Shown: positions 5,154-37,517, counted from the stretch's first letter. The stretch is DNA of 64,000 nucleotides from Anaerolineae bacterium (GCA_030605795.1 JAUWHR010000005.1:338-64337), one strand, 5' to 3'. Made by a program: numbers and translations. The notes: generated by a model not told the origin, from the sequence alone.

Positions 5154-6551
5154 ATGGATCTGATGCAATGGTTGTATAAGGGATTGCTCATGGATGACCG
5201 AAAACTGTGGGACCGCCCTAGTTGTCTTGCGAAACGGGAAGAACATGGAGATAACTTTCTAGATTGGTCTGTGGAAAACTTTACCTGGGACCAGCTCCTA
5301 GGGGAGATCAACTGGATCTCCAATCGTGAAGCGCTCATGCTTCTGGAGATGATGCTCAAGCGCGACATCCTTCACGAGATGCGAAGGGGCATCCTTCGTG
5401 GGAATAGCATTGAAAACACGCCACGATCTACGAGTCTTCCCGAACTAGAGCGCATGCTCGCCTGGATCCGTGCAGGGAACCGTTGGGCTTGGTGGATTGA
5501 AGCACTGCAGGAAATCCCTGATACCAAATACCATCCCATACCTCGCTTGGATTTTTCTATGCACGGGTCCTACCCTGGTATGGATCGAGTTCGGCGGCAC
5601 ATTGAGGATGTGGGCAGGCTTCTCTTTCGCAGGGGCATTGACAATGAGGGATTGCTCGTGATGGCCGATTACATCCTGTATGCGCTGGGCTTCCTCTCCG
5701 AGCCTCCTGACAATGTTCCTGTGGAGGATTTTAGAGATCTGGTTGTCTCTTTTGATCTCAACCTCTTGTTGCGCTGGCCATCTTCCCATTTCGACATCCA
5801 TCTTTCTGAGAGCAAAATCGGCATATAGGTTGCATTCTTTTCCACCCCGATGAACGTATCGGTCTTCATGTCTGAGATGGTGCATGCAGCTTCTCCCGAT
5901 GATGAGGCTTCAGATTCAGGGGATTCGGTTCTCCAGAGAAAGCGCAAGCTTTGTTCCACGCTTGGCGAGCCGGCTGCCGGCATCGGCAACCTGATCCTTG
6001 CCTCTTCGAACCATCACTGGCTGGGCGGGCCATTCTGGGACATCAATCCATCCACAAAGAAGGTGGGGCGTGCCCAGCTCGCCCAGTAAGCGCCCTAGTT
6101 CTAGCAGTATTACTTCCTTGCACCGCCACCATATGGTTCGCTGGCTGACCCCGAAGAACTGAGGCAGCAGGCTGCAGAGCAGCAGAAGATGTACATCATC
6201 GAACACCAGCGGGCAGTCTACGCCATGGAGGATTGGTCTTGGTGTTTGGTGGAGCGGGCGTTCTCGAGTCCAAACACCTCCGAACAGATCGCACAATACG
6301 AGAAGAGAAATCGTCTGCTGACAAAGGACATTCGGCATCGCGCCCAGGCGCGGAGCACGCGCAAGATGAGGGATCGGCTTCGCCTGCTCAACCATATGTT
6401 GAAATCTGTCCGTACAGAAACCAAGGAACAACCTTCGGAGACCCCCTCCGAAGATGTCTCCACAGAGGCGGCTCTTAGGCCCGACTGCATAAACCTTGGC
6501 TTCCAGCAGGAGTTCCTATTTGAAGCTGCAGAATTCGAGGGAAAGGAGTGA
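5154..6551 (+). pseudogene. N6-adenine DNA methyltransferase-like gene broken by four in-frame stops
   Basis: The track ORFs 5154-5828, 5850-6089 and 6189-6551 share one frame. In-frame stops are TAG 5826, TAA 6087, TAG 6096 and TAG 6102. By eye: FFSTP..V..M (FxTP-like), EPAAGIGNLIL (motif I-like), PPPYG (motif IV-like). Confidence 0.45.
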
Positions 6552-6660
6552 GAACGGAGATTATTTAATCCTGATCATCAGGTCAAAACGAAAGATCGAT
6601 CATGCCTATATGGGACATCTAATAGGACACTTGACGACTAAACGAAAGGGTAATATACTT

Positions 6661-7068
6661 ATGATAGAACTTCAAGCGGATCGAGACAGGAAAACCGTGA
6701 TGGCAGTAGCTTTTGTTGATCAACTCGAACGGGAAACCGCTCGGAAGACGATCGAGGGAGCACGTCAGACCTTCGGTTTGAATTATGTGGACATTGCATC
6801 TGCCTTGGGTGTCGATAGGCGAACTCTTCTACGGTATCGGAAAGAGATGAATACGCCATCGCCGAAGGTTCGTGATCGTCTGGAGGCTCTTCGTCAGATC
6901 TCTCATCTACTGTACTTGATCTACGTAAACCGTGAAGATGGGTTAACCTGGCTCTACACCCCCGTACCTCTCCTGCAAGGACGCCGCCCGATTGACCTCA
7001 TGAGAAGAGGTGAACTTGATGAGGTCCTTTCTGTTCTTGCAGGATTCTATTCGGGCGCTCACATTTGA
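6661..7068 (+). CDS. Xre-type antitoxin with DUF2384-like C-terminus (RES-Xre pair)
   Basis: [19 protein letters not shown], then [31 protein letters not shown], typical of antitoxins partnered with RES toxins. ATG 6661 preferred over track start 6496. Overlaps the RES gene by 4 nt. Confidence 0.75.
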
Positions 7069-7556
7069 GATACAAGGGTAAGGTCTGGCGACATGTCCCC
7101 GCTGGTGCACACCCATTGCATGCCGGTTACATTCTGAGAGCGGGCGGCCGATGGAATCGGCAAGGTGTGTATGGCTGTCTTTATACATCTCTTACCAAAA
7201 GGGGCGCTCTTGCGGAGTTCGCTAAATTCTTCCATAACTTGAGTGATGTTGATTTTCAAAGATGGAACCGCGATCTTGTCTCCATCCTTGTTGATTTGGA
7301 TCCTGTTGCAGATCTCACGAACAAGGCGACTTCACCAATCCCTCCAGACGAACCTTTTCTCACTGGAAATGAACCCAGCGATTTTGAGGCTTGCCGCGCA
7401 CTGGCGGATTCGTTGAGAGCTGCTGGCTACGTCGCGTTAATCACCCCTTCTGCAGCAAGGCCTGGAGAGAAAAATCTGGATATCTATCTAGACGGTCTGG
7501 CAGGAAACATCCAAATCGACGAAGGGGGTGAGCGGATTCCTCTCGAAGCCCCATAG
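7065..7556 (+). CDS. RES-domain toxin
   Basis: 163 aa. [30 protein letters not shown] supplies the R, E and S signature residues. Confidence 0.8.
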
Positions 7557-7656
7557 ATTTCACCAAAGCAACCCGATGGCAAGCTGAAAGCTGATAGTGC
7601 CATCATCATCGCATCCATCTTCCTCAACCAGACAGCATTGCTGTATGGTGTCTCTT

Positions 7657-8316
7657 GTACGCCCGGCATGGGCGATAGCTAGGAGGTGAAAGTCCTCTGC
7701 GGGCGTTGATCCGACGAACCGCTAGCCGACGGCAATTGCGCTGGTGTGAACCAGCGTGGGGACGCTGCGCGGAGCCAGAGTGCAAAACCTGGACTTGATG
7801 GATAAGAACTGCGTAAGGAGGCGTAGAGCGCCGGGTGAGCTAGCAAGTGATAGTGAAGCCCCAAAAGGGTCAAGGCGGCTTTACGTAATCGCAGCGAGGG
7901 CCAGGGGAAAGCTATCATACCTTATCCGGGGAGATCTGCGGCGTGTCTTGGAGACGAGACTGAGGAGATCGAGAGGTCTTCTGACCGCGTCGCAGAAGTC
8001 AGCATAGTCGATGGGGTAACGACCATCCAGGGAGAGCAGAGAAATCTGCTTAGTCCGAACGGCAAACTAGCCTGGAGTGGAACATTAGAGGGACGAGCAT
8101 GGAAGGTAGACTTCCCCAGATAGGGGACCTGCTGGTAGCGCGAAGGCGTTGAAGCCATTGGGATCCAACCAAAGGACCGAGCAGTCCCCGGCATCGACCT
8201 CCAACAAAGGCTAGAGGGCTAATAGATGTCCTGACTTTTGCCGAACCGCCGGATGCGGACCCGCATGTCCGGTGGTGTGGGAGGGGAGAGGTCGTGAGGC
8301 CTCCCCCTACCCCGAT
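7657..8316 (+). ncRNA. ORF-less group II intron-like RNA (5' boundary uncertain)
   Basis: Domain V-like hairpin at 8245-8276: 9-bp outer helix with a G.U pair, CGC at 8247-8249 in the triad position, 2-nt 3'-strand bulge TG, 4-bp inner helix, loop GACC. Domain VI-like helix at 8279-8313 with bulged A8309, 7 nt before ..CCCCGAT (8316). Candidate 5' ends are GTACG (7657) or GTGTG (7744). No RT ORF is present. Confidence 0.5.
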
Positions 8317-8830
8317 TTTTCTTAAAAAAGGAGATCAATATGAAAGCAGTAGGTTTTGCCTCAGTGTTGGACTCTGCGATTCCGAGAGCGCAGAGCTTCA
8401 CGGACAGGTCGCCATATGAAACACATTTGTGGGGGAGGAGCTTTTTTCAAGCGTGGATTCAGAGGTCAATGTTGCCAGATATCTTCCGTATCCTTCGCTT
8501 TCCCTGACCGAACTTCTTGAGGAAGATCTGGAACTCACACAGTCGTGTGCAGAGGCCGTTGAAAACCAATAGCAGGGCCTGTATGTGAACAGATTTATGG
8601 CGGGTATTGCCGGCGAATATCTTCGTCGTCTGATTTTGGGTGAGTTGGTAGTCTTTCAGACCTGGGTGAACTTGTCCAGCTTGGAAATGTCTTCCGTTCC
8701 CGTAAATCAATATCACATCAGCCGGTTATCCCATCTCAGGGAAGAAAGTCAGAGGTGTTCTATGGAAACCGTTAAGGAGATGTTGGCCTAGGAATTAGTT
8801 CGTCCGCGTAAACCATGCTTCCATGCTGAG

Positions 8831-10115: not shown

Positions 10116-10416
10116 ACCCAAACATTGATTGATAGAGAGAAATCCGCCGCCGATCCCGAAGGCAGACTCTTCTTCAAGAAACGTCGGAATGGCGGGATCA
10201 TCCAGCGATACTACGAACGGAAAGGATACGGCGCCTGCAGCCTGTACTCGAAGGAGGGGGGTGGAATCCTATACTGCTTCTCTAAGCCCCTTCCTCAAGA
10301 AGCCCGTGAGGAGTTCCGGAGAGTCGTTGAAGAGGGGCAATCAGGCGATCATGAACTCCGACGGGATCTCAGCCACCTGACATGCTGGAACGAAGATCTG
10401 GGGCGAGCGGAGTTGA

Positions 10417-11456
10417 TCGCCGGCACAGTCCGGTGTTGCTGGTCAGATTTTTAGTGATTGGGAGAACTTCGCCCGCTACGGCTTCAATCGAGCGCATGCC
10501 ACCGTCTACGGTGCAGTTCCAGTACATAGGGCCTTCCTCAAAGCCAACTATCCCATCGAGTACATGACCGCTTTGATGTCAGTGTTCCAAGAAGACCCAG
10601 ATCGTACTGCTAGGTACATCACCGACTGCAGGCGCATGGGAATCGGCATTCTAAGGCCCTCTGTCAACAAAAGTGGTCTGGATTTCACCATTGAAGCGAG
10701 TTCTGAGGCTCCTGAAGCGATTTGCTATGGTCTTGGGGGCAAAAAAAACGTCGGTGATGGTGCAGCAGGGCTCATTGTTGAGGCCAGAGGGCTGGAGGGC
10801 GAGTTTTCAGATGTCGTTGACTTCGCGTTGCGGGTAGATCTGCGCAGGGTGGGGAAGCGTGCATTAGAGTCGCTCATCATGGTTGGCGCCCTTGATGATT
10901 TCGGTTCTTGAACCGTATTCCTGGAGCAGGTTGAATCTCTTTCCCGCGACTCTGGGAAACACCATCAGGTCCTTTCTGCGGATCAGATGACACTCTTTGG
11001 CGGAGAGATCAACGGGATTTCCCAATCTGTTCTCCCAACCCGAACCATGGAGGCGTCAAAGCGACGGTGGCTTGCATGGGAGAAAGAAATCCTGGGCGTG
11101 GATGTATCAGATCACCCCGTTGCGTCGAAGATGGCCATCCTCGGTGGCCTCATCTCTCACTAAAGCTCGGAAATCCAGGACACTTCCCAGAACGAGCACG
11201 TGATCGTTGCGGGCGAGGTGACAGACATTCGTAAGATCCTCACCCGACGAGGGTATCCCATGGCTTTTATCCTTTTTGAGGACCTTCAGGGCACGATCGA
11301 GCTGGTGGTCTTCCCAAAGGTCTGGAAGAATACGTCTGCTTGGCTCGAGCAAGGATCGATCGTGGTGGCCAAGGGCAATGTGGACCTGGAGCGGGATATC
11401 CAAAGGTGCTGGCGGATAAGATCACGGATCAGCTCGAGCGGGTGAAGGTTTATTAA
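10417..11456 (+). pseudogene. dnaE: DNA polymerase III alpha subunit C-terminal remnant
   Basis: FARYGFNRAHATVYG..FLKANYPIEYMTALMS, then GALDDFG, EKEILGVDVSDHP and an OB-fold tail (GYPMAFILFEDLQGTIELVVFP). In-frame TGA 10909 and TAA 11161. A -1 frameshift near 11398 restores ..PKVLADKITDQLERVKVY*. The N-terminal ~800 aa are missing. Confidence 0.8.
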
Positions 11457-11530
11457 CCATTATGGTTAAAGCCAAGCATGGGTCGTAGAGGGGGTTTAAT
11501 GGTGGGGCAAATTACGCGTTACTGTAAAAT

Positions 11531-12300: not shown

Positions 12301-14073
12301 GAGCCCGCCCCGCCTGTCAACTTCCTCACCCAACAACAGCAAGCTGTCTATGGGCAGTATGCGGGGGAACCCTCCCCTCAGCAGCTCGCCCGGTACTTTC
12401 ACCTAGATGACACGGATAGGCAACTCATCCTCCGGCGCAGGTCGACTTATAATCAGCTTTGTTTTGCGCTGCAGGTATGCACTGTGCGCTTTTTGGGCAC
12501 GTTTCTTTCCAACCCGCTTGACGTGCCAGAGGGGGCCGTGCGCTATGTCGCGAACCAATTGCCCATTATTAATATGGCCGACTTGTCGAAATACACGGCC
12601 CGCCGCACCACTCGTCACGAGCATGCCAGGGAGATCAAGCAGTTCTATGGCTATCGTGTTTTTGATGATCCGGCCATGCATTTCCAGTTGCTTCGCTGGC
12701 TGTACACTCGGGTCTGGTTAAGCGATGAAAGCCCGTCCATGTTGTTTGACCTGGCAACCGCCTGGCTTGTAGAAAGGAAGACCCTGCTTCCAGGCGCGAC
12801 CACATTGGCGCGTTGCATTGCCCGCATTCGCGATCGGGCTCACCGACGCTTGTGGCGCACGCTGGCCCAACTGCCCAACCCGCAGCAGCGCGAGCGTCTG
12901 CTCAACCTTTTGGTCATCCCTGAAGGGGAAAGCCAGACGCCGCTGGACCGGCTGCGACGCTCGCCAAGCCGGGTAAGCAGTGTTGCACTGCTGAGAACCT
13001 TGGAGCATATGGATGAAGTTCGCGCCCTGGATATTGCCGGTGTGGATCTCTCGCATGTACCTTTCAATCGCATCAAAGCCCTGGCTCGCTATGCCACGTC
13101 CTCTTGGGCTGCAACGATCAATCGTCTGCAGCGCGACCGAAAGATCGCCACGCTGTTGGCCTTTGCCCATGGACTTGAGGCCAAAATCCAAGACGACATC
13201 TTGGATCTGCTGGATCGCTTTTTTGCCGAGAAGTTTGCCACCGCCAAGAGATACGGGCAAAAGGAACGACTTAGAACGCTGGCGCGGTTTGATGCTGCCG
13301 TGTTTCAGCTTCGCAATGCTTGCTTGTACTTACTGGATGAAAGCCTACCGGACCAGGCTGTGCGCGAAGCTGTATTTGCCCGGATTGACCCAGAGGCATT
13401 GCGAGAGGCGCTGGTGGTTGTCAATGAAAAGGCGCGCTCAAAGCCGCCGCATTATTTCAATCATCTGACTCGTAGCTACGGAAGCGTGCGTCGTTTTCTC
13501 ACCAAGTTGCTGCAATCCATCCATTTTCAAGGTTCGCGGGCGAGCAAACCCATTCAGGACGCCTGGCAATTTCTCTACCAAATGGACCACGCAGCAGCGC
13601 CACCCGATCTCCAAGCGGCACCACGTGAAGTTATCCAGGCTGCTTGGCGCTCGTTGGTCATCGATCCCAGTCAAAAAATCAACCGGCGGTATTACACCTT
13701 TTGTGTATTGCACCATCTAATGGAGGCGCTGCGCCGGCGGGATATGTTTGTCTCCCCAAGCAACCGCTGGCATGACCTGCGCAGGAAACTGCTGCAGGGA
13801 AAGCAGTGGGAGTAAGCCCGTCCGAAGGTTTGCCGCACCTTAGGGTGGACGACGGATGGAAAGGCCGAGATCCAGCGTCTCTCCTCGGTCAATCTGCCTG
13901 AGGCGATGCTGGAGATCCATCGCCGCACAGGATTTGCAGACGAGTTCACCCACATTTGTGAAACGAAATCGTACGTGGAGGATTTTTCGATCTCTGTCTG
14001 TGCAGCTTTGCTAGCATAAGCCTGCAACATTGGCCTTGAGCCGGTGGCGCGCCCGGATATCCCAGCGTGTTAG
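12301..14073 (+). pseudogene. tnpA: Tn3-family transposase, N-terminal ~590 codons, truncated
   Basis: DUF4158-like N-terminus (LTQQQQ..LARYFHLDDTDRQLILRRRSTYNQLCFALQVCTVRFLG). In-frame TAA 13813 and TAA 14017 (..LLA*ACNIGLEP). No start codon. The reading frame ends at the IS junction near 14073. Confidence 0.8.
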
Positions 14074-14075: not shown

Positions 14076-15507
14076 AAACTTGAAAACTGGACACTTATAA
14101 ACTTCAAAAGTGGACTTGAAAGCCCTGTAAAGGCAGAGAGACAGAGTGAATCATCTTGTTGTTCCACCAAATACGGATATGCATGAGCTTCTTCCCTTCA
14201 TCAGGCACGAGATGGACATCTACATCTTCTCGAAGAGGCACATTAGGCACTTCAATAACATGTTTGAATAAAGAAATTCTGCGGTACCCGTTGACTATCC
14301 TCTTCTCCCGTAAACAGAAAACATCTTTGGCCGAGGTATAGGGTTTGGGTGTCGTGAACTTACGAAAGAGACTATTGCCTTCTTTTCTCGCACTCTCAAA
14401 ACGGATGTTGGGGATCTCACCGGTCGTGGAGTGAACTTGGTTGTTGTTATACCGATTGAGCTCGTCTCTCAAGACGCTTCTGCCATCTTCCATCTCGGAT
14501 ATTTGTCCATAGATACAGGTACGTACGATGCGGTCCTGCAGCCAACGATAGGGGCACTCGACCTTGCCTTTGGCCTGGGGGGAGAGTTCATAGGTGACAT
14601 CCACATTCAGAACGCGCATCATCTTGCGCCACTGAGTCGCAACATCGTCTGTTTCCAGTACATGCTTATGCCAGCCTGTCCTGGACCCTTCGGCAGTCCA
14701 GGGAAGCTGTCCCTTCCCTGGACGAAACGAAACACACGCAAGGAGTCGACATAGTAGCGAAGGGGCAGGCCGTGGGTCTCGATGACGGTCTTCGTTGCCT
14801 GAATATGGGCCCAGGTCGTCTCTCTGGGGAAAAAGTCAGCGAATAGTATCTTCCGGCTGAAATCATCGATAGAAGTGATGAGGGTCCATTTCTCCTTTGC
14901 AAGAGGAGACCAAAGGTGAAGAGAAGCGTCATGCTGTACCAGGGCACCGATGGAAGCGGTCAAGACTTCCCGGTCGTGCACCTTTCTCTTCCTGCGTGGT
15001 TTATGGCAGCCAAGCTTCTTGGCTCGCTTGATGATGGTAGTGACGGAAACATCGACCCCTTTCTTCCTTAGTCGATCCCTCAGTGCTGTGTAGTTGTAGC
15101 CGGAGATGGGTAAGTCGGGATCTTGGACGATTTCTTTCTCCTCCAGCAAAGCCTTCTCGATTTCCGCTTCCACTTCCGCTGACAACCTGTCATGAGATGT
15201 TCTTTTATAGTCAATTGAAAAGGTGGCCGGATCTTGCCGATAGGATTTCAACAAGGCAAAGAATCGGGTCTTGCCTACACCCAACATTTCCTGAACCTGA
15301 GCTCTGCTCATTTTCCCCAAGCAGTAGCTTTGAAGTAGAACTTTAATCTGTTCGTCGGTAAGGCGTCTGTGAAGCTGGTCCATTGACTCCTCCTTTTTGA
15401 AAGGAGAAATCTAACAGGGAAAGGAGTCTCTGCCGTTATCTCAGGTGTCCACTTTTCAAGTTTACATGGTTCACCTTTCAGGTTTAAACAGTTCACTTTT
15501 AAAGTTT
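14076..15507. mobile_element. rve-type IS (ISNCY/IS481-like) with multiple subterminal repeats
   Basis: AAACTTGAAAACTGGACAC (14076) and AAACTTCAAAAGTGGACTT (14099) on the left. Inverted copies on the right at 15445-15463, 15468-15485 and 15489-15507. Encloses the transposase gene. Confidence 0.7.
14104..15383 (-). pseudogene. DDE (rve) transposase split by a frameshift
   Basis: N-terminal HTH, HDASLHLW and IDDFSR acidic motifs, then SPQAKGKVECPYRWLQDR in a second ORF (14104-14622). The frames switch around 14620-14700. A programmed frameshift is not excluded. Confidence 0.7.
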
Positions 15508-16904: not shown

Positions 16905-16916
16905 GGTAAACGGGTT

Positions 16917-18260: not shown

Positions 18261-18323
18261 GCAAGGAAAGGAGAAGAAGTGGATATTGGAGAGAGAAAGT
18301 GAACTCCCTTATTCGGTGCCAGA

Positions 18324-18339
18324 CTACATTCGAATGTAG
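18324..18339. promoter_or_regulatory. Perfect 16-bp palindrome upstream of the ABC transporter genes
   Basis: CTACATTC|GAATGTAG, 30 nt upstream of the SBP start codon. Confidence 0.4.
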
Positions 18340-25258: not shown

Positions 25259-25281
25259 CAGCCGCCAGCTGGTTGGTTGAC

Positions 25282-26550: not shown

Positions 26551-27551
26551 ACAAGCTGACAAGTTGGCCGGAAACACGCGGTTTTCGCATCCTGGGGCTG
26601 ACCTATGGTCTCGCCTCAAACAATGGTGAGTTAATCCACAACCCGGTCCACTTCGAACCAGGTGAGATCTACACTCAGATCACCAACTGGGAGAAGCTAG
26701 AATATATTGATTATGGGCCAGGCATGAATGCCTATTGTCACCTGCTGGATGACCCTGATCTCCCATTCGAGATCATCGCCGATGAAAAAGAGCTATTCAT
26801 CCAGGGTGACCTAAGTCGCCTCGAACGAGATGGCAAGGATAAGCGTTGGAACATACTGGGGAACATTGGTATCTGGTTCCGCTACGCTTTGGCCACCCAG
26901 GAACGGCATGGCATCTATAGTTTCCATGCCTCGTCAATTTACAAGCCACAGGAAAACGAATTGCTGGTGATCGTTGGAAAAGGAGGGGTGGGGAAAACGG
27001 TCTACTTGCTTGAATCGCTTACCCAAAGCTATCAAATCTTCAGCACAGAGATGACTTACTTCCGGTACGTACCGGAGGGTGTGGTTTTCTACCGGGGTGC
27101 GCTGATGGATAACATTCGAGTGGGGAGTTTTTTATACGATTTCCCCGAGGCGGCAGAGCGCCTATGCCTGGATTTGCCACAAGTTGCAAATCCCTGGGAG
27201 GCCAAGATCAGCGTGGATATGCACTCGATAACGACTGCTAAGGATGAATTGCTCAACCCAAAGCTGTCCTTTATATTCCCCCGAATTGAGGCAGGGTACG
27301 AGCACTCGATTATAGAGAATGTAGCCCTTCCGCGAACGTTGACCCGGTTATTGTTTGATAGTGCTTCCGAAAAGATCGGTAGTACGATACTGATGTATGA
27401 GGAATTGCCAGCCGTTGGATTAGACACCCCTGCACTGGCCCAAGCCCGTTGGCAGGCGGTCTCGAGGTTGGTGGCTGCTCCCCAATGGGAAATCAAACAA
27501 GCCAGGAGGATCCTGGCTGGACCAAAATCCTGCATGGAAGGAATTGATTAA
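26547..27551 (+). CDS. HprK-like/PEPCK-like P-loop kinase-fold protein, substrate unknown
   Basis: 334 aa. FHASSIYKPQENELLVIVGKGGVGKTVYLLESL resembles the H-x-S..G-x-G-K-(S/T) core of HPr-kinase-related kinases. Coupled to pgk upstream and comA downstream. Confidence 0.45.
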   Translation: MNKLTSWPETRGFRILGLTYGLASNNGELIHNPVHFEPGEIYTQITNWEKLEYIDYGPGMNAYCHLLDDPDLPFEIIADEKELFIQGDLSRLERDGKDKRWNILGNIGIWFRYALATQERHGIYSFHASSIYKPQENELLVIVGKGGVGKTVYLLESLTQSYQIFSTEMTYFRYVPEGVVFYRGALMDNIRVGSFLYDFPEAAERLCLDLPQVANPWEAKISVDMHSITTAKDELLNPKLSFIFPRIEAGYEHSIIENVALPRTLTRLLFDSASEKIGSTILMYEELPAVGLDTPALAQARWQAVSRLVAAPQWEIKQARRILAGPKSCMEGID

Positions 27552-28353
27552 AATGGGTAAGAAAGCATGGGAAGGCGTGTTCAGCATGCCTCAACCAGGA
27601 CGCAGCATGAAGCCGCGCACCAACGGCTTCACGATGGTGTTGGACAAGGGTCTGGGCCGTTATCAAACCGAGGACCTTATGGCGACCGCCTCTGACTATA
27701 TCGACTTTGTGAAGTTCTCCTTCGGCACGTCGGCTTTCTATGACGAGCAGGTCCTACGCGAGAAGGTCGAGATCGTGACCGGCGCTGGCGTGGGCATTTA
27801 TCCCGGTGGAACGTTCCTGGAAGTGACCGTGTGGCAGGATAGTTATGCTGACTATCTGCGGCGCGCTAAGGAGTTGGGCTTCACTGCGATCGAGGTATCC
27901 GACGGCACATTGCAGATGTCAGACGAGGTGCGCGCCGACTGCATCAAGCGCGCCCTGGATGCCGGCTTCGAGGTCATCACCGAGGTGGGCAAAAAGAGTC
28001 CTGACGAGGAGGTGGCCGTGGCCGAGATGCACCGGCTCATTGCCCACGATCTGGACCTGGGGGCGCTCCTGGTCATCGTCGAGGCCCGCGAGGCCGGCAA
28101 GGGCGTGGGCATCTTCGACAAGTCCGGCGCGGTGAACGAGAGCCAGGTGGATCAGATTATCTCCGGTGTGGATGACCTAGACAAGCTGATGTGGGAAGCG
28201 CCGATCAAGAACCAGCAGCAGTACCTGATCTTGCGCTTCGGCAATAATGTCAACCTGGGGAATATCCCCACCACCGACGTGCTGGCCTTGGAGGCCTTGC
28301 GCCAGGGGTTGCGCGGAGACACACTCAAGCGGGCGTTGCAGCAGGGGTTGTAA
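27544..28353 (+). CDS. comA: (2R)-phospho-3-sulfolactate synthase ComA family
   Basis: Near full-length by-eye match to methanogen ComA: VLDKGL, DYIDFVKFSFGTSA, YPGGTFLE, GFTAIEVSDGT, EVGKK, EAREAGKGVGIFDK, NLGNI, LRQGLRGDT. The start may be ATG 27553. Confidence 0.85.
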   Translation: MIKMGKKAWEGVFSMPQPGRSMKPRTNGFTMVLDKGLGRYQTEDLMATASDYIDFVKFSFGTSAFYDEQVLREKVEIVTGAGVGIYPGGTFLEVTVWQDSYADYLRRAKELGFTAIEVSDGTLQMSDEVRADCIKRALDAGFEVITEVGKKSPDEEVAVAEMHRLIAHDLDLGALLVIVEAREAGKGVGIFDKSGAVNESQVDQIISGVDDLDKLMWEAPIKNQQQYLILRFGNNVNLGNIPTTDVLALEALRQGLRGDTLKRALQQGL

Positions 28354-28364
28354 CCACGTAGTGT

Positions 28365-28404
28365 GTATTGCGTGTTCCTTTACGCAATGTGCACTACGCA
28401 ATAC
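28365..28404. promoter_or_regulatory. Cluster of three TATTGCGT/ACGCAATA motif copies upstream of pfk-like gene
   Basis: GTATTGCGT (28365-28373), ACGCAAT (28382-28388) and ACGCAATAC (28396-28404). The outer copies form an inverted repeat. Confidence 0.4.
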
Positions 28405-28416
28405 GGAGCATAGTTC

Positions 28417-29661
28417 ATGAGCAAACCGTTACCCGACATCCTCGTTGTCGGCCAATCTGGCGGCCCAACGCCGGTGATCAACGCCAGCCTGGCGGGCGTG
28501 ATTAGTGAAGCGCAGAAGCACGATTGCTTCAGCGGCATCTACGGCCTGGTGCACGGTATCGAGGGCGCACTCAAGGAAGAGCTGCTCGATCTGAAGACTG
28601 AAACGGCCGCCAACCTCGAACTGCTGGCCCACACCCCGGCCTCGGCACTGGGATCCTGCCGTCACAAGTTATCCGACGACGACTATGACCGCATCCTGGA
28701 GGTCTTTGGCGGCCACAACGTGCGGCATTTCATCTACATCGGCGGTAACGACTCGATGGACACCTGTCACCGCATCGCGCAAGTGGCCGCTACATCTGGC
28801 TACGATATGCAGGTGATGGGTGTGCCCAAGACCATCGACAACGACCTGGCCTTCACTGACCACTGCCCCGGCTACGGTAGCGCAGCCCGCTTCCTGGCGC
28901 TGGCGACCCGTGATACTGGCCGCGACCTAGAAGCGATGGCGACCTTCGATGATGTGACTATCCTGGAGGCGATGGGACGTAACACCGGGTGGCTGACCGC
29001 TGCTTCTGTGCTGGGCAAGGAAACGGAGGATGAGGCCCCCCATCTTGTCTATGTGCCCGAGGTGCCTTTCGATGAACAGTGCTTCTTGGATGACGTGACC
29101 CGCGTCCACGACCGGTTGGGGTGGGTATTCGTTGTCGTCAGCGAAGGGATCCGGGATGCCGACGGCCAGTTTATCGGACAGCACAAGCTGAGAGGTGGCG
29201 GCAGCGATGCCTTTGGGCACGTCGTCCATTCCCTAACGACCGGTGTGGCTGCTTACCTCACAGACGTAGTCAGGGAAGGGTTAGGCTTACAAGCCCGTTT
29301 TCTACGTCCCAGCCTGATCGAGCGGGCGATGAGCGCCTGCGTATCCGAAACCGATCGGAAGGAGGCATGGCAGGTAGGCGTAGATGCTGTCACACACCTA
29401 GTTGCGGGTCGCAGCGGTTACATGGTCACGCTTGAACGCGTCTCGGATGATCCATATCATTGGGAAACCGGGCTAGCCTCATTGGATGAGGTCGCCAATG
29501 CCGAAAAGCTTCTCCCCAGTGATTTTATAAATAATGCCGGGGATATGCCCACCCAGCGCTTTAGGGATTATGGGCTACCGCTGATCGACGGCCCTCTATC
29601 GCACCTGGCCCGGTTGAGAGGGACACGGGTTCTAAAAAAAGTTAATCAAGGTACAGCTTGA
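28417..29661 (+). CDS. PfkA-family phosphofructokinase (ATP- or PPi-dependent, undetermined)
   Basis: 414 aa. GQSGGPTPVINAS, IGGNDSMDT and PKTIDNDL motifs. Confidence 0.85.
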   Translation: MSKPLPDILVVGQSGGPTPVINASLAGVISEAQKHDCFSGIYGLVHGIEGALKEELLDLKTETAANLELLAHTPASALGSCRHKLSDDDYDRILEVFGGHNVRHFIYIGGNDSMDTCHRIAQVAATSGYDMQVMGVPKTIDNDLAFTDHCPGYGSAARFLALATRDTGRDLEAMATFDDVTILEAMGRNTGWLTAASVLGKETEDEAPHLVYVPEVPFDEQCFLDDVTRVHDRLGWVFVVVSEGIRDADGQFIGQHKLRGGGSDAFGHVVHSLTTGVAAYLTDVVREGLGLQARFLRPSLIERAMSACVSETDRKEAWQVGVDAVTHLVAGRSGYMVTLERVSDDPYHWETGLASLDEVANAEKLLPSDFINNAGDMPTQRFRDYGLPLIDGPLSHLARLRGTRVLKKVNQGTA

Positions 29662-29768
29662 TTAATTAGGAATATCAATGCCTTCTTCTTACTCCCCCGT
29701 TGCTAGGGGTCATATGACCCAAATATAGACCCCCCCTAGCAGAATATAGCAATCGGAGGCAGCTAACC

Positions 29769-30812
29769 ATGTCAACAGAATATTCGCTTGGTGATTACAA
29801 ATTCAACCTGAAAGCTTTCTTCCCCGCTCGCATCTTTGAGATGATCACCGACATCCGAGTGGATAAGCCAGAGATCATCGAACAGCAAGCGCTGACCCGC
29901 AAACGTCGTCCGCGCCTGACGCGGGATGGCAAGCTCACCATTCTGGCGGCCGATCACCCCGCTCGTGGGGTCACTGTTATTGGAGACGACCCGTTCAAGA
30001 TGGGAAACCGTCACCAATACCTGGGGCGCATCCTGCGGGTGCTGATCGCCACCGATTTTGATGGTTTCATGAGCACAGCTGACATGATCGAGGACTTGAT
30101 CATTGTGGATTACCTGGTGCAAAAAGGTGGCGGACCTTCCTTCCTGGATGAAAAGGTGCTGATTGGCTGTATGCAGCGCGGAGGTGTCGCCGGAGTGGTC
30201 GGCGAACTAGACGATCGCTTCGGTTCGTATTCCGCCGAATCCATCGCCCGCTTCCGGCTGGATGGCGGCAAAATGATGTTCCGTTTTGTCCCCGACGACG
30301 AGCGCACACTGTGGCAGATTGACTACTGCTCTAAAGCCATCACCGACCTTTATCGTTATAACCTAGTACCCTTCGTTGAGCCGCTGCGCATGGATTACGT
30401 GGACGGCAAATGGGTCAGCAAGAACACAGCTGACGAGCTGGTCAAGCTGGTCGGAGTGATCGGCGGCATGGGCGATTCGTCACGCTGCACATGGATGAAA
30501 CTCCCCTACTGCCAGGATTTCCACCGGGTCACAATGGCGACAACCCAGCCCATCCTCATGTTGGGTGGGCCTTCCAAGGAGGATCCACGACATACTTATC
30601 GAGACTTTGCTGCCGGCATGGCAACCCGCAACAACGTGCGCGGCGCGCTAGTAGGTCGCAACGTCTCTTTCCCCGGATTTGATGACCCGGCTGCCATAGC
30701 CCAAGCAATCAACGAGATTGTCCACCGGGGGATTTCCGCCGACGAAGCCATTGAGGTAACATTAGGTCACCGGGATAAGAAAATAGATTTCCTGACAAGT
30801 TACATAACATAA
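29769..30812 (+). CDS. Class-I-aldolase-like (beta/alpha)8 protein (Cgl0159/DeoC-LacD-like family)
   Basis: 347 aa. LTILAADHPARG, CMQRGGVAG, ELDDRFGSY, DGGKMMFRF, FVEPL and WMKLPY match my recollection of the Cgl0159-family TIM-barrel pattern. Confidence 0.6.
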   Translation: MSTEYSLGDYKFNLKAFFPARIFEMITDIRVDKPEIIEQQALTRKRRPRLTRDGKLTILAADHPARGVTVIGDDPFKMGNRHQYLGRILRVLIATDFDGFMSTADMIEDLIIVDYLVQKGGGPSFLDEKVLIGCMQRGGVAGVVGELDDRFGSYSAESIARFRLDGGKMMFRFVPDDERTLWQIDYCSKAITDLYRYNLVPFVEPLRMDYVDGKWVSKNTADELVKLVGVIGGMGDSSRCTWMKLPYCQDFHRVTMATTQPILMLGGPSKEDPRHTYRDFAAGMATRNNVRGALVGRNVSFPGFDDPAAIAQAINEIVHRGISADEAIEVTLGHRDKKIDFLTSYIT

Positions 30813-30823
30813 AAGTAGAATGT

Positions 30824-30835
30824 GCGTATTGCGTA
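30824..30835. promoter_or_regulatory. Fourth copy of the TATTGCGT motif, upstream of the GH4 gene
   Basis: GCGTATTGCGTA at 30824-30835, in the 109-nt gap before 30922. Confidence 0.35.
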
Positions 30836-30921
30836 TCTCGAGCTTTACTCAATAAGAAAGGTGGAACTTAAACTAGCGACGAAATCCCGGCGATAAACCT
30901 CACAAACAATCGAGGTGAACA

Positions 30922-32313
30922 ATGGTAAGAACGCCCAAAATCGTCTGTATCGGCGCAGGGAGCGCTATATTCGGCCTGAGCAATATGGCCAGCATCGTTC
31001 GCAGCCCACGGTTGCGCGGCTCGGAATTAGTGCTAGTAGACATTGATGAAGCTGGTCTAAAAACGATGACCAGACTTGCCCAGATAATGAACGAGTCCTG
31101 GGACGCAGAAATGACAATTTCCGGCACGACCGAACGCGAGGAGGCGCTTCCCAACGCCGACTTCGTCGTGGTCTCGGTGCAGGTAGGTCAGCGGGAAGAG
31201 GTATGGGAGTTGGATTGGAAGATTCCCCTCAAACACGGCGTGCGCCAGCCCTACGCTGAGAACTCAGGACCGGGGGCCTTTGCCCACACAGCTCGCAACG
31301 CTCCCCTGATCCTCGCCATCGCACAAGATATGGAACGGCTGTGCCCAGATTCTTGGTTCCTCAACTTCACCAACCCCTTGATCCGGTTGACCTGGGTTGT
31401 GCAGCGCTATACCAAGATCAAGGTCGTCGGGCTCTGTCACCAATTGTTTTGGGCATATGCGATGGCCGCGACGGTGCTGGCAGATCGCTGGGGGCTGCAA
31501 ATTCCTGAGGGTTTTCATGTCCACACCAACTATGACAACGAGGCGAACCTCATTCCGGTGATCCTTGAAGGCCATAAACATATGGACATCAAGGCAGCGG
31601 GGCTAAACCACTTTTCGTGGGTGTACGATATCCGCGACAAAGAGACCGGAGAGGATCTTTACCCGCACCTGCGCGAGAGATGGCTCCAACATTACCGGCG
31701 AGACTTCGAACCACTGACGCGCGAGATGTTCGAGATCTTCGGCTTGATGCCCACCGCGGGCGACGCGCATATGTGTGAGTATCTTCCCTGGACACACGAT
31801 CCCCTCACCAAGCCCTGGGAAAAGTACAACCTAACCTTGCAGAGCTGGGAAGGCAACCGACGACGCCGCGCCGACCGCATTGCAAAGGCAGAAGCCATCG
31901 TGGCCGGGGAGCAGCCGGTGGATCAACTGAAAGATGCCATCAGCGAGGGTGTGCCGGAGATTGTTGAGGCGATCACCTTCAACGACAACCGCTACTACCA
32001 CCAACTTAACCTTCCGAACAACGGCCTGATTCCCAACCTACCCGACGACGCCATCGTCGAGGTGCCGGGCGTGATCTCCGGCTTCGGCATCAAGGGGTTG
32101 GGGGTCCCGCCTCTACCGGAAGGAATCGCCGAGCTCTGCCGTCGCGAGCTGGCGCTCAGCTCGCTTGTCGTAGACGCCGTGGTTCATGGCGACCAAGAGT
32201 TGGCTTTGCAGGCCCTGATGCTTGACCCAATAATGAACGACATTGACCGAGCAAGAGCCATCCTGGATGACTTCCTGATGACTTTCGCCGAATACCTTCC
32301 GCAATTCGCATGA
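30922..32313 (+). CDS. GH4-like NAD(+)/metal-dependent glycoside hydrolase
   Basis: 463 aa. N-terminal Rossmann KIVCIGAGSAIFG, LVLVDID, FLNFTNP and VGLCHQ, as in family 4 glycosidases. Confidence 0.75.
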   Translation: MVRTPKIVCIGAGSAIFGLSNMASIVRSPRLRGSELVLVDIDEAGLKTMTRLAQIMNESWDAEMTISGTTEREEALPNADFVVVSVQVGQREEVWELDWKIPLKHGVRQPYAENSGPGAFAHTARNAPLILAIAQDMERLCPDSWFLNFTNPLIRLTWVVQRYTKIKVVGLCHQLFWAYAMAATVLADRWGLQIPEGFHVHTNYDNEANLIPVILEGHKHMDIKAAGLNHFSWVYDIRDKETGEDLYPHLRERWLQHYRRDFEPLTREMFEIFGLMPTAGDAHMCEYLPWTHDPLTKPWEKYNLTLQSWEGNRRRRADRIAKAEAIVAGEQPVDQLKDAISEGVPEIVEAITFNDNRYYHQLNLPNNGLIPNLPDDAIVEVPGVISGFGIKGLGVPPLPEGIAELCRRELALSSLVVDAVVHGDQELALQALMLDPIMNDIDRARAILDDFLMTFAEYLPQFA

Positions 32314-32319
32314 CCTTGA

Positions 32320-33597
32320 ATGGAGGTCGTGTTGGAGTTCCGCATTCCCTACGGTAAAAACCACTTGAGCTTCCTTCTCCCCGATGGTTTGGAAATCGAG
32401 GTGGTGGAACCAGCAGAGACTCCCGCGGTTCCTGATCCCCTCGGTGAGGTAGAAGCAGCGCTTGCAGTACCAGTGGGCAGCGTCGACCTGATGGCTTTCC
32501 GCGGTGCCCGTTCTGTCGCCATCGCCATAAACGATAAGACCAGGCCGGTCCCCAACCAGCATCTCCTACCGCCTATGCTGGCGCGTCTTGAGGATCTCGG
32601 GTTGACGCCGAAAGCAATCCGTTTTATTGTCGCTACCGGCGTTCATTCCACGATGTCGCCGGAGGAATTTTTTAGCGTCCTCCCAGAGGAAATCCTCACT
32701 CGATATCTTGTAGGCTGTCACGACGCCGACGATCGCGGGAACCTGGTGCATCTCGGCACAACTTCGCGCGGCACTCCAGTGTGGGTCAACCGGTCCTTCG
32801 TGGAGGCCGATCTGCGGATTGTCGTGGGTAACATCCAACCACACCAATTCCAGGGCTTCACTGGTGGGGTCAAGGGTGCCGCCATCGGGTTGGCTGGGCG
32901 CGAGACCATCAATCACAACCACGCCATGATGGTCGATCCTGGCGCACTATTGGGGCACTTCGCCAATAACCCGGCTAGGCAAGATGTGGAAGAGATCGGC
33001 CAAAGGATCGGGGTTCACTTCGCCTTGAATGCTGTTCTGAACCAGGATAAGGAGATCGCGGCTGTCTTCGCCGGGGAACCGCGCGCAGTGCTGTTGAGAG
33101 GCATCCCCGTGGTCCGCAGACTTAGCCAAGTGCCTGTCAGTGAACCTTTCGATCTCGTTATCGCTTCACCCGGGGGTCACCCTGAGGACATAAACCTGTA
33201 CCAGTCGCAAAAGGCACTGGCCCACGCGGCCTTGGTCACCAGAGATGGCGGCACGGTGATCTTGGTCGCGGCCTGTCCCGAGGGGGTGGGAAGTATGAGC
33301 TACGAGCGGTGGGTGGAGGGAATGACCTCCCACGAATCCGTCATCCAGCGGTTCAAGCAAGAGGGCTTCCGCGTGGGACCGCATAAGGCCTTCCAGATCG
33401 CCAGAGACGCTGCGCGGTTGCGCGTGCTGGTAGTCTCCCAGATGCGCGCCAACTTGGTGAGACGGCTGCTGTTGACGCCGGCAAGCAGCCTCGACGAGGC
33501 AATATCCCAGACTCTGGGCACTATTCGGCGAGAGGCGCGCGTGGGTGTAATGCCTCGGTCTAGCGCCACCATACCGACGCTGGAAAAGATAGCGTGA
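32320..33597 (+). CDS. LarA-family (nickel-pincer cofactor) 2-hydroxyacid racemase/epimerase homolog
   Basis: 425 aa. INDKTRPVP, ATGVHSTMSPEE, QPHQFQGFTGGVKG and INHNHAMM align by eye with L. plantarum LarA (SDHTRPVP, ATGFHRPST, ESHFFAGFSGGRKS, MANHS). Confidence 0.7.
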   Translation: MEVVLEFRIPYGKNHLSFLLPDGLEIEVVEPAETPAVPDPLGEVEAALAVPVGSVDLMAFRGARSVAIAINDKTRPVPNQHLLPPMLARLEDLGLTPKAIRFIVATGVHSTMSPEEFFSVLPEEILTRYLVGCHDADDRGNLVHLGTTSRGTPVWVNRSFVEADLRIVVGNIQPHQFQGFTGGVKGAAIGLAGRETINHNHAMMVDPGALLGHFANNPARQDVEEIGQRIGVHFALNAVLNQDKEIAAVFAGEPRAVLLRGIPVVRRLSQVPVSEPFDLVIASPGGHPEDINLYQSQKALAHAALVTRDGGTVILVAACPEGVGSMSYERWVEGMTSHESVIQRFKQEGFRVGPHKAFQIARDAARLRVLVVSQMRANLVRRLLLTPASSLDEAISQTLGTIRREARVGVMPRSSATIPTLEKIA

Positions 33598-33615: not shown

Positions 33616-35127
33616 ATGGCGAAGTACATCGCTGCATTGGACCAAGGGACGACCAGCACCCGCCGTATTATTTTTGATCACGACGGGACGGTGGTCAGCG
33701 TCGCCCAGAAGGAACACAACCAGATCTATCCTCAACCTGGCTGGGTTGAGCACAACCCAATCGAGATTTGGGACCGGACGCAGGAAGTGATACGGGAAGC
33801 GACCGCAAAAGCGGACGTGCTACCTGGCGACATCGCCGCGGTGGGGATCACCAACCAGCGTGAAACAGCCGTCGTATAGAACAAGAATACTGGCCAACCC
33901 TATTTCAACGCAATCGTCTGGCAAGATACCCGTACCAAGAATATCTGCGATGAACTGGCAGCCGAGGGCGGCCAGGACCGGTTCCGCAGCAAGGTTGGCC
34001 TGCCTTTGATGGCATACTTCTCTGGCCCCAAGATTAAATGGATTCTTGACAACGTAGATGGGGTTCGTCAGGCGGCGGAGAGAGGGGAAGCTCTCTTTGG
34101 CAACATCGACACCTGGGAGATGTGGTGGCTGACGGGTGGGCCTGACGGCGGTGCCCACATCACGGATGTGACCAACGCCAGTAGAACGATATTGATGAAC
34201 CTGGAAAACCTGGATTGGGACGACGAAATCCTTGATACTCTGGGAGTTCCGCGTCAAATGCTGCCCCGTATCGTACCTTCCAGTGATCCAGACATCTGGG
34301 GAAACACGCCGAAGAATGGACCATTCGGAGATATAATCCCCGTCTGTGGGGATCTGGGTGATCAACAGGCTGCCTTGGTCGGCCAAACCTGCTTCAACCT
34401 AGGGGAGGCCAAGAACACCTATGGCACAGGTTGCTTCATGCTCCTCAACACTGGCACCTCCCCGGTGCCATCTAAAAGCGGCCTGCTGACCACCGTCGCC
34501 TATGGTATTGCCGATCAACCTACGGTCTACGCTCTTGAAGGCTCCATCGCCATCACCGGCGCGCTAGTCCAATGGCTGCGCGACAACCTGGGCTTGATCA
34601 GCAAGTCGGTCGAAATCGAGGACTTGGCCAGGACGGTGGAAGACAACGGGGGCATCTACTTAGTTCCGGCGTTCTCTGGACTTTTCGCCCCCTATTGGCG
34701 GTCGGACGCCCGTGGTGTCATCGTGGGGTTGACACGCTACGTCAACAAAGGCCACTTCGCGCGCGCTGCGCTCGAGGCCACAGCCTATCAGACACGTGAG
34801 GTGTTGGATGCGATGGAGAAAGATACCGGCGTAGCATAGAAGGCCCTAAAGGTTGATGGCGGTATGGTCTACAATGAGCTACTCATGCAGTTCCAGGCTG
34901 ACATACTGGGTGTCCCAGTCATTAGACCGGAGGTCGCTGAGACTACATCGTTGGGCGCCGCTTACTCAGCTGGGCTGGCTGTGGGTTTTTGGGACAACCT
35001 GGAAGACCTGCGGTCCAATTGGCAGGTTGGCAAGACCTGGGATCCGAAGATGGAGGAGGGGGAGCGTGAGCGGCTTTACCAAAGCTGGCTGAGGGCCGTC
35101 GCCCGCACCTTCGACTGGGTTGAGTAG
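33616..35127 (+). pseudogene. glpK: Glycerol kinase with two in-frame TAG codons
   Basis: [26 protein letters not shown] and [16 protein letters not shown]. One frame throughout. TAG 33877-33879 sits where GlpK has Trp (..ETxVW). TAG 34837-34839 is just before ..LKVDGG. Confidence 0.85.
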
Positions 35128-35434: not shown

Positions 35435-35653
35435 ATGCTTGACAGGCTAAGGTGGTGGTTGAAAGACTGGTGGTATGACGCTTGGGGCGGAGGAGGATGC
35501 CTGAGCGACCTTACCTTGTGGGGTCTCATTCTTGGATCCTGCATAGTCGGATATTGGCTATATACCAACTTCGGTCTTGATATACCCGTCTTCATGGTCG
35601 TAATGCTTATCCTGGTTGGTATCGTCTTGCTTAGAGATCGGCTTGATCGTTGA
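35435..35653 (+). CDS. Possible small membrane protein
   Basis: 72 aa with two hydrophobic segments. No recognisable family. Confidence 0.25.
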   Translation: MLDRLRWWLKDWWYDAWGGGGCLSDLTLWGLILGSCIVGYWLYTNFGLDIPVFMVVMLILVGIVLLRDRLDR

Positions 35654-36148
35654 TGACCTTCAAGGTGTATTTTATATTTGATTGCTGATGAATAGACTTA
35701 ATTGGGAATCCAATAAGCCTAATAGCTAGGAGGAGATAATTACATCTGACGATCTGTTGTCCACAGATATTTGGGCACCAGCTACATATGAGTTAGAAAG
35801 TCAAGCTCTGATTTGAGATTCACTGTCAGTTTATTGAGTAGCCTCACTCGCCCGGCCCACCGCCGAGCTATTACTTGAGCGGAGGGATGTTGTCTCTTCT
35901 TCAGTTGCGCCTATCCCGTTTCAGTCCGCAGCTTGCAAATCGGGACGCAGCACCTTGGTAAGGGCATGCCCGGACTAAGCCGTCTGTAAGACCCAGGAAC
36001 ACCGGGAGGCGCCCCCAGCCTGACAAGCTGAACCAGCAAATCTCAACAGCGAGCCGCTGGCAACGCATCTTTCATATGAACATCCGCGACCTGCCATCCC
36101 CCTTTTTCCTCTTGACATAAGCCCTATAAATTGCTGTAAAATATATCG

Positions 36149-36233
36149 TAGATTCAACTCACAAGTGCAACCTTGACGGTTGGAATAAGAGGCCTAGATT
36201 CAACTCACAAGTGCAACATTGAACGTTGGAATA
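36149..36233 (+). repeat. Two tandem ~39-bp repeats, 46-bp period
   Basis: TAGATTCAACTCACAAGTGCAAC is identical at 36149 and 36195. Each copy is followed by a short hairpin-like CAAC(C)-n6-(C)GTTGGAATA. TTGACA is at 36112-36117 upstream. Confidence 0.7.
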
Positions 36234-36356
36234 TGAAGCGAGTAGTGGATATTGAGAAAGCAGGGTTCCACTTGCTATTCGCGCGGGGTTACAGATACCC
36301 GTAGGCTTTCCAACGCGCCAAGAGCTACATTTTGCATCCTACACAATAATAATACT

Positions 36357-37517
36357 CTATTCTCCGGATTGAACTACTTCCTCCCACTTCAGGATCTTCG
36401 TCACATTAGGCTCTGGAGCGTACACATCCTTCGTCGTCTATGCTCGAGCGTGTCCCAGGATTGACTGCACCTCATCGATCGACGCTCCCAAATCGATGAG
36501 CCGCTGGGCGTGCCAGTGCCGGAAAGCGTGCGTATAAAGAAACTGATCACGCTCGGGATCATATCCCGCCTTTTTCGCCAATTCCACAACGATCCTTCGA
36601 ACGGATCCTGGTCCAAGTCAAGCTCCGTAACCGCGACGCCGGCGGCGGTAGGCCTCGGCCGAGATATCCCTTTTTCTAGATGGTGCCCCGGTGCAGCCAT
36701 GCTGGATGAACAGCCAAGGTGAGGCATCGTTCCTTTCCTCTAAATATTCGTCAATTGCAGCCAGCACCGCTTTCCCTAGAACGATGTGTGCCGCAAGCCT
36801 CGTTTTTGCCATCTCGATTCGCAGGTACCCTCCAGTCTGCCAAGCTAGCCTAACATCTGTTCGGGTAAGCGTAGACACATTGCCAGCTCGCAGTGCAGTT
36901 GCCCTCAGGGTACGTATGATCGTCCGTGCCCGAAGAGTCTCCAAGCGGGCCTTCCGCCTTGCACGAGGATCCGAGATATCCTTCTCGGTCGGGAGGGGTA
37001 GGGCGCTTGCCACCTTGAGCATCCGATCTCCGAAGTCAGTTGGGATGTCACCACTGCGTACGTGTACGCGGCGACGCTCATCACGGGATCGTTGGATCTG
37101 AAGCGCTTTGCGGGCTTGTGTCTCCTCCTCTGGGGAAAACGTAAGCCACTCGCGATACCACCAGAAGCGCAGGAGTCTAGATAGTGCCTGCAGTTAGAGC
37201 CTTCGAGTGGAGATGATATATCCCTCCTGGAGCTCCTGGTCGCTCTCGTCGCCCTCTGGCCCGGGACCTGTGTGCGTCGCTGTCTGCATCCAGGCGTTGA
37301 AATCAGCAGAGACACTAGAAGGCAATGCATCGATCGCTGTGTTTGGGGTGAGTTCCTCATGATCCTCGATGAATCTGAGGAAGGCGCGCGCCCCAGAGCG
37401 ATAGGAAAGGCGTGTTCGTTTGCTACCTTCGCCAAAGTCGAAGTCACTGAAGAATGCATTGACAGACTGCTCGATTATGGGGTAGGTATTAGATTCTGAT
37501 TTGTATTGTTCATTCAT
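36357..37517 (-). pseudogene. Tyrosine recombinase broken by three in-frame stops
   Basis: Single frame across 1161 nt with TAA 37194-37196, TGA 36618-36620 and TAG 36438-36440. The C-terminus retains HAFRHWHAQRLIDLGASIDEVQSILGHA..TTKDVY (R-H-R-Y region). Confidence 0.8.

Follow-up and report, generated by a model that had tools for sequence, protein, structure and literature searches.

The window examined here, a stretch of 64,000 nucleotides from an Anaerolineae bacterium (GCA_030605795.1, JAUWHR010000005.1:338-64337), contains seven dead genes in which in-frame stop codons far outnumber small frameshifts: 18 stops (9 TAG, 5 TAA and 4 TGA) stand against two one-base frameshifts. This 18:2 ratio probably reflects ordinary neutral decay of fairly recent date, affecting mobile genes and acquired genes that are redundant. 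The window corresponds to C27:338-64337 of a metagenome-assembled genome (MAG; here G000) of 2.66 Mb in 98 contigs, which is 81% complete and 1.2% contaminated, and all lesions were read from the assembled sequence. The organism is an uncultured member of the Anaerolineae (Chloroflexota). Its stretch from 5 to 43 kb is littered with the remains of mobile elements and of DNA acquired horizontally, and the 18 stops are clustered within the approximately 3,000 codons of the seven dead genes, which are as follows:

5059-6551, plus strand: pseudogene without an assigned function, with stops TAG 5127, TAG 5826, TAA 6087, TAG 6096 and TAG 6102 and no insertions or deletions (indels).
10345-11460, plus strand: C-terminal remnant of a DnaE-type polymerase (~350 of ~1300 codons), with stops TGA 10378, TGA 10414, TGA 10909 and TAA 11161 and a one-base deletion.
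12301-14070, plus strand: remnant of a Tn3-family transposase gene (tnpA) without a start codon, with stops TAA 13813 and TAA 14017; 58 codons are deleted in frame at ~13885.
14104-15383, minus strand: transposase-like gene of an insertion sequence (IS) inserted in tnpA, with one reading-frame change at ~14620-14700 by three-frame translation and a weak HTH_32 match.
33616-35127, plus strand: glycerol kinase (glpK) pseudogene of 503 codons, with stops TAG 33877 and TAG 34837 and no indels.
36363-37517, minus strand: tyrosine recombinase pseudogene of 385 codons, with stops TAA 37194, TGA 36618 and TAG 36438 and no indels.
42273-42683, plus strand: remnant of an IS256-family (Transposase_mut) gene (~137 of ~400 codons), with stops TAG 42306 and TAG 42378.

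A preliminary description of this region, made by an unaided reader of the DNA, had counted 13 stops against two frameshifts and concluded that these genes decay almost never by indels. Each of those stops, from TAG 5826 through TAA 37194, is borne out by translation in both coordinate and frame, and the two frameshifts, in the dnaE tail and in the IS transposase, are likewise present when the frames are read directly or translated in all three registers. To these are added TAG 5127, TGA 10378, TGA 10414, TAG 42306 and TAG 42378. The conclusion about indels holds for changes of 1-2 bp, but it fails for large lesions, as the same genes carry an IS insertion, the 58-codon (174-bp) in-frame deletion, a lost start codon, and N- and C-terminal truncations. 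Intact homologues of the same length were found for the 5059-6551 gene, glpK and the recombinase, while for tnpA and dnaE the comparison was with relatives of full length; against these the dead genes are interrupted. Six-frame Pfam scans of the remaining unexplained or gene-poor gaps in the window revealed no further hidden pseudogenes.

The course of decay can be followed most closely in the gene at 5059-6551, whose homologues share 75-80% protein identity with it; the intact ones are 502 aa long and lack any Pfam domain. Homology places its start at GTG 5059 rather than at 5154 as first described, thereby adding the fifth stop, TAG 5127, and the label "methyltransferase-like" finds no support in Pfam, NCBIfam or PDB searches. 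A sister copy lies on L044 (Ga0209986_10007096), an 8975-bp Joint Genome Institute (JGI) metagenome contig that was found by a degenerate-pattern scan of metagenome contigs, and that has the same gene order as the window and 92.8% DNA identity to it over 1-2011 and 87.5% over 3299-7550. No close relative of this region turned up when the DNA of same-genus and same-family genomes was searched, and L044 was obtained from the metagenome scan only. Its source is an uncatalogued relative; no same-family species representative matches the window region at 87-93%. An exact-protein look-up of a neighbouring gene gave no match in other assemblies, and no near-identical public contig was found.

Substitutions were assigned to lineages in a three-way DNA alignment of 5059-6548 (1.49 kb) comprising the window, L044 and the outgroup P0121, an intact homologue. 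In the window lineage there are 59 substitutions (39 transitions and 20 transversions), of which 36 (61%) are GC>AT and 16 are AT>GC; in the L044 lineage there are 46 (31 transitions and 15 transversions), of which 28 (61%) are GC>AT and 13 are AT>GC. The window copy has accumulated 45 missense and 20 synonymous codon changes and five stops without a single indel, whereas the L044 copy has acquired two one-base indels along with two stops. In the window lineage, missense and synonymous changes stand at 45:20 against a neutral expectation of ~2.7, a ratio that is close to neutral and marks relaxed selection. No lesion is common to the two copies, as judged from this one gene only; its decay has run separately in each lineage, with an equal spectrum, and the L044 lineage has gained frameshifts as well. 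The five stops of the window lineage compare with 2.5 expected (p = 0.11) and its lack of indels with 1.2-3.3 expected (p = 0.04-0.29), and the difference in indel counts between the two lineages is not significant (p = 0.20). With two outgroups, the ancestral changes at the five stops are GAG>TAG, CAG>TAG, TAC/TAT>TAA, TGG>TAG and a tandem double change, ACG/GCG>TAG. The last three lie in a cluster at 6084-6104, in which four of eight codons have changed (CTG>CAG, TAY>TAA, TGG>TAG and the tandem double ACG/GCG>TAG), a concentration that is not readily predicted by a uniform process.

The other pseudogenes were compared with homologues at the protein or DNA level. The glpK pseudogene aligns without gaps to 11 homologues of 503 aa at 79-84% identity, and its Pfam FGGY_N and FGGY_C matches span both stops. 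The codon at 33877 is Trp in all compared homologues, indicating TGG>TAG, and that at 34837 is Leu in all homologues but one distant sequence (Ile), indicating the transversion TTG>TAG. There are 17 private missense changes at columns invariant in the 11 homologues, and the two stops compare with ~1.5 expected; an excess of stops relative to missense changes, obtained with more distant homologues, vanished with the closer set. A second glpK, intact and more distant, lies on contig C70 of the same genome. The recombinase, for which 120 homologues were found (best identity 80%), likewise aligns without gaps, its PF00589 match contains the stops, and the DNA of its nearest homologue indicates TAC>TAA, AGA (or CGA)>TGA and CAG>TAG. 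Its signal of relaxed selection is less clear than that of glpK, with six private missense changes at invariant columns.

The dnaE remnant was identified by a Pfam HHH_6 match and by alignment to the DnaE proteins of seven relatives at 46-51% identity. It reaches upstream to ~10345, ~800 N-terminal codons are gone, and the frameshift, read directly from the frame, arose when a GGGG run at ~11393-11396 lost one G. Its stop at 10909 replaces an invariant Arg, and that at 11161 falls at a column occupied by F, Y, T or L in relatives. The remnant is matched in 79 of the 81 genomes of the order, mostly inside an open frame of ~1200-1400 aa of the DnaE type; in G000 this long type was seen only as the broken remnant at 10345-11460, another DnaE (~1057 aa, 32% identical) being encoded on C43. 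An intact copy of the long DnaE may lie in the unassembled 19% of the genome.

The tnpA remnant was recognized by a Pfam DUF4158 match, by tblastn to plasmid Tn3 transposases (44% identity) and by alignment to two 1001-aa transposases, both of which contain the 58-codon segment that is missing from the window copy. It is interrupted by the IS, and its last ~400 codons are absent. The homologues have Ser or Val at 13813, where the change was probably TCA>TAA, and Gln or Glu at 14017. Finally, the IS256-family remnant is based on self-tblastn to a paralogue on C75 and on positions 25-85 of the Pfam Transposase_mut profile, and at both of its stops the C75 paralogue has Lys, indicating AAG>TAG twice.

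The preliminary description had further raised the possibility of a G:C>A:T-biased process such as deamination, pointing to a site compatible with TGG>TAG. The ancestral codon was sought for each stop, and preferences for transitions, strand and context were assessed; the inferred codons reveal no bias towards transitions. Four of the changes are secure transitions (two CAG>TAG and two TGG>TAG) and at least seven are transversions (GAG>TAG, TAY>TAA twice, TTG>TAG, AAG>TAG twice and probably TCA>TAA), while three could belong to either class, one is the tandem double and two are unknown. Transitions thus account for 4 to 7 of the 16 stops with an inferable ancestor. When every single-base change possible in these genes is enumerated, 3.5-4.8% create stops and, over a range of spectra, 30-65% of the stop-creating ones are transitions. 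Furthermore, the transitions that make stops (from CAA, CAG, CGA and TGG) are all G:C>A:T by the structure of the genetic code, and for that reason a site compatible with a G-to-A change is uninformative: the change from TGG to TAG was indeed recovered, twice, but it carries no information on mechanism.

The substitutions of the 5059-6548 alignment, taken together, give no sign of editing either. Changes of the C>T or G>A type make up 26 of 59 (44%) in the window lineage and 20 of 46 (43%) in the L044 lineage, a spectrum that is equal even though the L044 copy is frameshifted. The 5' neighbours of the C>T changes in the window lineage are T (10), A (7), C (6) and G (4), so that a fixed dinucleotide context was not found, and beyond changes at CpG (12 of 27 in the window lineage and 9 of 25 in the L044 lineage) there is no context preference. 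The plus-strand ratio of C>T to G>A, 18:9, is not significant.

A process resembling cytosine deamination or repeat-induced point mutation (RIP), which would write stops into foreign or mobile DNA, would account for the preponderance of mobile or horizontally acquired genes among those affected, for the four stops that arose as CAG>TAG or TGG>TAG, and for the 61% of lineage-assigned substitutions that are GC>AT. However, at least 7 of the 16 inferable stops are transversions, some of them at A:T pairs (TTG>TAG, and AAG>TAG twice), and GC>AT transitions are no more frequent in the window than in its sister lineage (44% vs 43%). Such a process would also have had to leave untouched the intact foreign operon that lies between the dead genes:

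15657-33597, plus strand: run of 15 intact genes between the dead genes, with no internal stops (open reading frame map and coding-potential profile).

Fungal RIP and APOBEC-type editing yield near-pure C>T/G>A changes in a defined context. The window resembles them in bearing stops in mobile or foreign sequence without indels, but differs in that at least ~45% (7/16) of its stop-creating changes are transversions and in that its spectrum is that of the sister lineage. In the 81% complete genome, the deaminase domains PF14437 (MafB19-type) and PF14428 (DddA-like) were unmatched, the PF14428 search being blank in every control genome too and so carrying no weight. An editing process of this kind, already contradicted by the spectrum, is extremely improbable.

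A second concern is that some or all of the stops are errors of assembly or consensus, as base miscalls arise more readily than indels and the genome is a MAG of 98 contigs and 81% completeness. Low coverage and low read quality have been found mainly to add spurious internal stops, with MEGAHIT giving most pseudogenes, although MAGs were outside the assessment of that study (Cooley and Wright 2024, PMC11017572). The window is similar to such spurious pseudogenes in that its internal stops exceed its frameshifts, as short-read assembly errors would give, and dissimilar in that the affected genes are few, clustered and marked by other signs of decay. The stops are confined to seven genes, and the adjacent 18-kb operon has none. 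In the ABC-ATPase family of this genome two loci are broken, whereas ~60 domains in intact genes are free of stops; because of this, and because the stops are concentrated in dead genes, they are not scattered base-calling errors. In addition, the changes in 5059-6548 look biological, in that transitions stand at 2:1 to transversions, the substitutions are biased towards GC>AT and CpG sites have an effect, and the independent assembly L044, from another metagenome, also shows the 5059-6551 gene to be broken. Artefact is therefore very unlikely.

The stops might alternatively be tolerated by living genes, being read through or recoded by a suppressor tRNA, selenocysteine insertion, an alternative code or leaky termination. 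In-frame stops are widespread in prokaryotic genes and are enriched in the mobilome and next in carbohydrate metabolism, and many of the genes that bear them have been argued to be under purifying selection and read through (Belinky et al. 2021, PMC7918605). The window is alike in having stops in mobile genes (transposases and recombinase) and in a carbohydrate gene (glpK), but its stops are multiple and unconserved and lie in almost neutrally evolving genes. The genome does possess tRNA-Sec and two TGA codons aligned with Cys, both outside the window, yet the window stops comprise all three codons, up to five in a gene, and align with Q, Y, W, E, R, S, L and K, never with Cys. Moreover, no stop of the 5059-6551 gene is conserved in L044, its missense:synonymous ratio is near neutral, and several of the dead genes are truncated as well. 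No suppressor tRNA for TAG or TAA was found among the 31 tRNAs of G000, tRNA-Sec being present. With 9 TAG, 5 TAA and 4 TGA on eight different residues and no cognate TAG or TAA suppressor, stop-codon recoding was rejected, and that these genes are still alive by any such route is scarcely credible. Apart from the window, the tRNA-Sec gene (C32:21534-21629) lies ~550 bp from a thioredoxin-fold gene whose TGA (C32:20982) aligns with the first Cys of CxxC, and the second TGA-for-Cys codon (C81:24367) is in a hydrogenase-delta-like gene; from these alignments both genes probably encode selenoproteins.

How many small indels should accompany the stops was gauged from a family of miniature inverted-repeat transposable elements (MITEs) of 128 bp, of which 67 full-length copies show 9-15 substitutions per indel overall. 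About two-thirds of these indels lie in A6/T6 runs, and outside runs of at least five bases there are 17-48 substitutions per indel. The element has a GC-rich hairpin core and at least 67 full-length and ~126 total copies on many contigs (e.g. C24:2003-2142 and C18:35279-35422). In the three full-length, indel-free pseudogenes (5059-6551, glpK and recombinase; ~4.1 kb together, with 10 stops and no indels), the longest homopolymer run is no more than five bases, and the five genes counted contain no more than three runs of at least six bases, of which tnpA has two and dnaE one. The private changes in glpK and the recombinase would imply a neutral divergence of roughly 1-4%. Few small indels are thus to be expected, because the pseudogenes are young and contain few long homopolymers.

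The preliminary description had also implied that a genome-wide count would set this lineage apart from the usual indel-rich spectrum. Outside the window, all credible open reading frames (ORFs) were compared with the genome by tblastn, using a best-coding-frame filter and removing non-coding repeat queries. Comparison of self-paralogues outside C27 gave 15 in-frame stops (14 without one TGA that is aligned with Cys) and seven frameshifts. Pfam searches added three stops and one frameshift, namely a second dead integrase at C69:37108-37602 (two stops), a DDE transposase on C93 (one stop) and a further frameshift in an IS256-family transposase gene on C75, which has two frameshifts and not a single stop. 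With a 400-kb sample of the same-genus complete genome G004 as the reference (328 usable reference ORFs, median identity ~60%), one pseudogene was added, on C32, with two TAA codons. The rest of the genome therefore has ~19 stops against 8 frameshifts. The nonsense majority that had been anticipated is present, but so are frameshifts, and the 18:2 of the window is not significantly different from the rest (Fisher p = 0.15).

Other forms of the census were discarded. A homology-free one based on hexamer coding potential was too noisy in windows of 25-40 codons, known stops such as 33877 falling below its thresholds, and its first version over-called frameshifts at operon junctions (553 calls). 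The output of unfiltered tblastn consisted chiefly of antisense shadow ORFs and of matches to a non-coding repeat translating as 'HVTPSS...'. This repeat, at C91:29317-29668 (tandem, ~89 bp spacing), C5:25600-26935, C68:8116-8322, C32:3091-3271 and C9:17676-17999, translates as 'HVTPSSAAARSLHATN...' and mimics stop-bearing ORFs in tblastn. The census also brought out a second cluster of dead mobile genes at C69:32600-37700, where one integrase has TGA and TAG, an integrase fragment has TAA together with a frameshift, and a single TGA interrupts a gene of 129 codons whose identity to a C77 paralogue is 94.6%.

Published pseudogene censuses are usually dominated by frameshifts; in the Mycobacterium tuberculosis complex, 66.5% of pseudogenes contain frameshifts and 16.1% internal stops, and the authors put the rarity of stops down partly to high GC content (PMC9676053). 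G000 differs in that stops exceed small frameshifts, both in the window (18:2) and elsewhere (~19:8). This contrast raises the question as to whether the lineage has an unusual regime of mutation or retention, in which small indels are rare or deletion bias is weak, so that dead genes stay full-length and fill with stops, as the ~4.1 kb of full-length pseudogenes with 10 stops and no indels would suggest. Yet the MITE copies of this same genome carry indels at ordinary rates, the L044 copy of the 5059-6551 gene gained two indels alongside 46 substitutions, and many remnants elsewhere are short fragments, showing that deletion is active. The numbers are also small, and the census favours stops. 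A special regime is therefore rather unlikely.

Ordinary decay remains the favoured account. Under it, the transposases, the recombinase, the polymerase fragment, the redundant extra glpK and the 5059-6551 gene would no longer be under selection and would accumulate ordinary spontaneous mutations. Substitutions, biased towards GC>AT in the usual way and at a ratio of transitions to transversions of ~2:1, would already have given one to five stops per gene, with larger lesions (IS insertion, deletions and truncations) contributing alongside. The 18:2 ratio would then lie at the upper end of a surplus of nonsense changes that runs through the genome and is modest in size (~2-3:1), and it is sharpened because the numbers are small and because an unaided reader recognizes only those dead genes that keep one frame. 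As in neutral pseudogene decay in other bacteria, there are several independent lesions per gene, near-neutral missense:synonymous ratios, IS insertions and truncations, and lesions that are not common to a relative. For genes other than 5059-6551 we infer neutrality, as we do the expected number of indels.

Several observations nevertheless weigh against this account. Taken at face value, 18 stops imply ~400 substitutions, from which 8-20 small indels would be expected and two were observed; this deficit shrinks only if the first stop in each gene is regarded as the ascertained event and the higher substitution:indel estimates are used. In the recombinase, three stops compare with ~0.8 expected from six private missense changes at 166 invariant columns, a weak excess. 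Stops occur in 3 of 9 integrase-domain matches in G000 and in 4 of 106 in 25 same-family genomes, which also speaks for a lineage-specific regime. Lastly, the census detects frameshifts less easily than stops, as two significant alignment pieces are needed, and yet its result is richer in nonsense changes than published censuses. A modest, unproven lean toward nonsense across the genome is possible.

Two further elements complete the picture of the window. The first lies downstream of the 5059-6551 gene:

7600-8320, plus strand: group II intron without a reverse-transcriptase ORF (Rfam RF02001 at 7740-7919, 90 bits; RF00029 at 8244-8316).

Domains D1-D4 of this intron match at 7740-7919 and domains V-VI at 8244-8316, and with only ~325 nt separating the two the reverse-transcriptase ORF is missing; the intron is thus a further decayed mobile element of this stretch. 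Between two decayed elements, at 6496-7556, is an intact pair of overlapping genes encoding an Xre/MbcA/ParS antitoxin and a RES-domain toxin. These two ORFs form an Xre/RES toxin-antitoxin pair and do not represent a frameshifted gene. The second element is a minus-strand gene block at 46000-61000 with strongly negative GC skew (~-0.25 over 14 kb). Its products are a TrwB/TraG-like type IV coupling protein of 980 aa, a Replic_Relax protein and a helicase of the DnaB-like type, and the block resembles an integrative conjugative or mobilisable element that is still intact.

Targeted editing of mobile DNA in bacteria, if true, would amount to a new kind of genome defence, but the evidence from this window says otherwise. 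Two cautions follow for the reading of pseudogenes from sequence: nonsense codons that derive from transitions are always G:C>A:T and cannot by themselves indicate deamination, and a reader without tools over-samples dead genes in which a single frame persists. The mild excess of nonsense changes across the genome is not by itself a discovery, and it is doubtful that this Anaerolineae lineage is a natural exception to the frameshift-dominated, deletion-biased decay of bacterial genes. What the window offers is a well-documented set of young pseudogenes in an island of mobile DNA.

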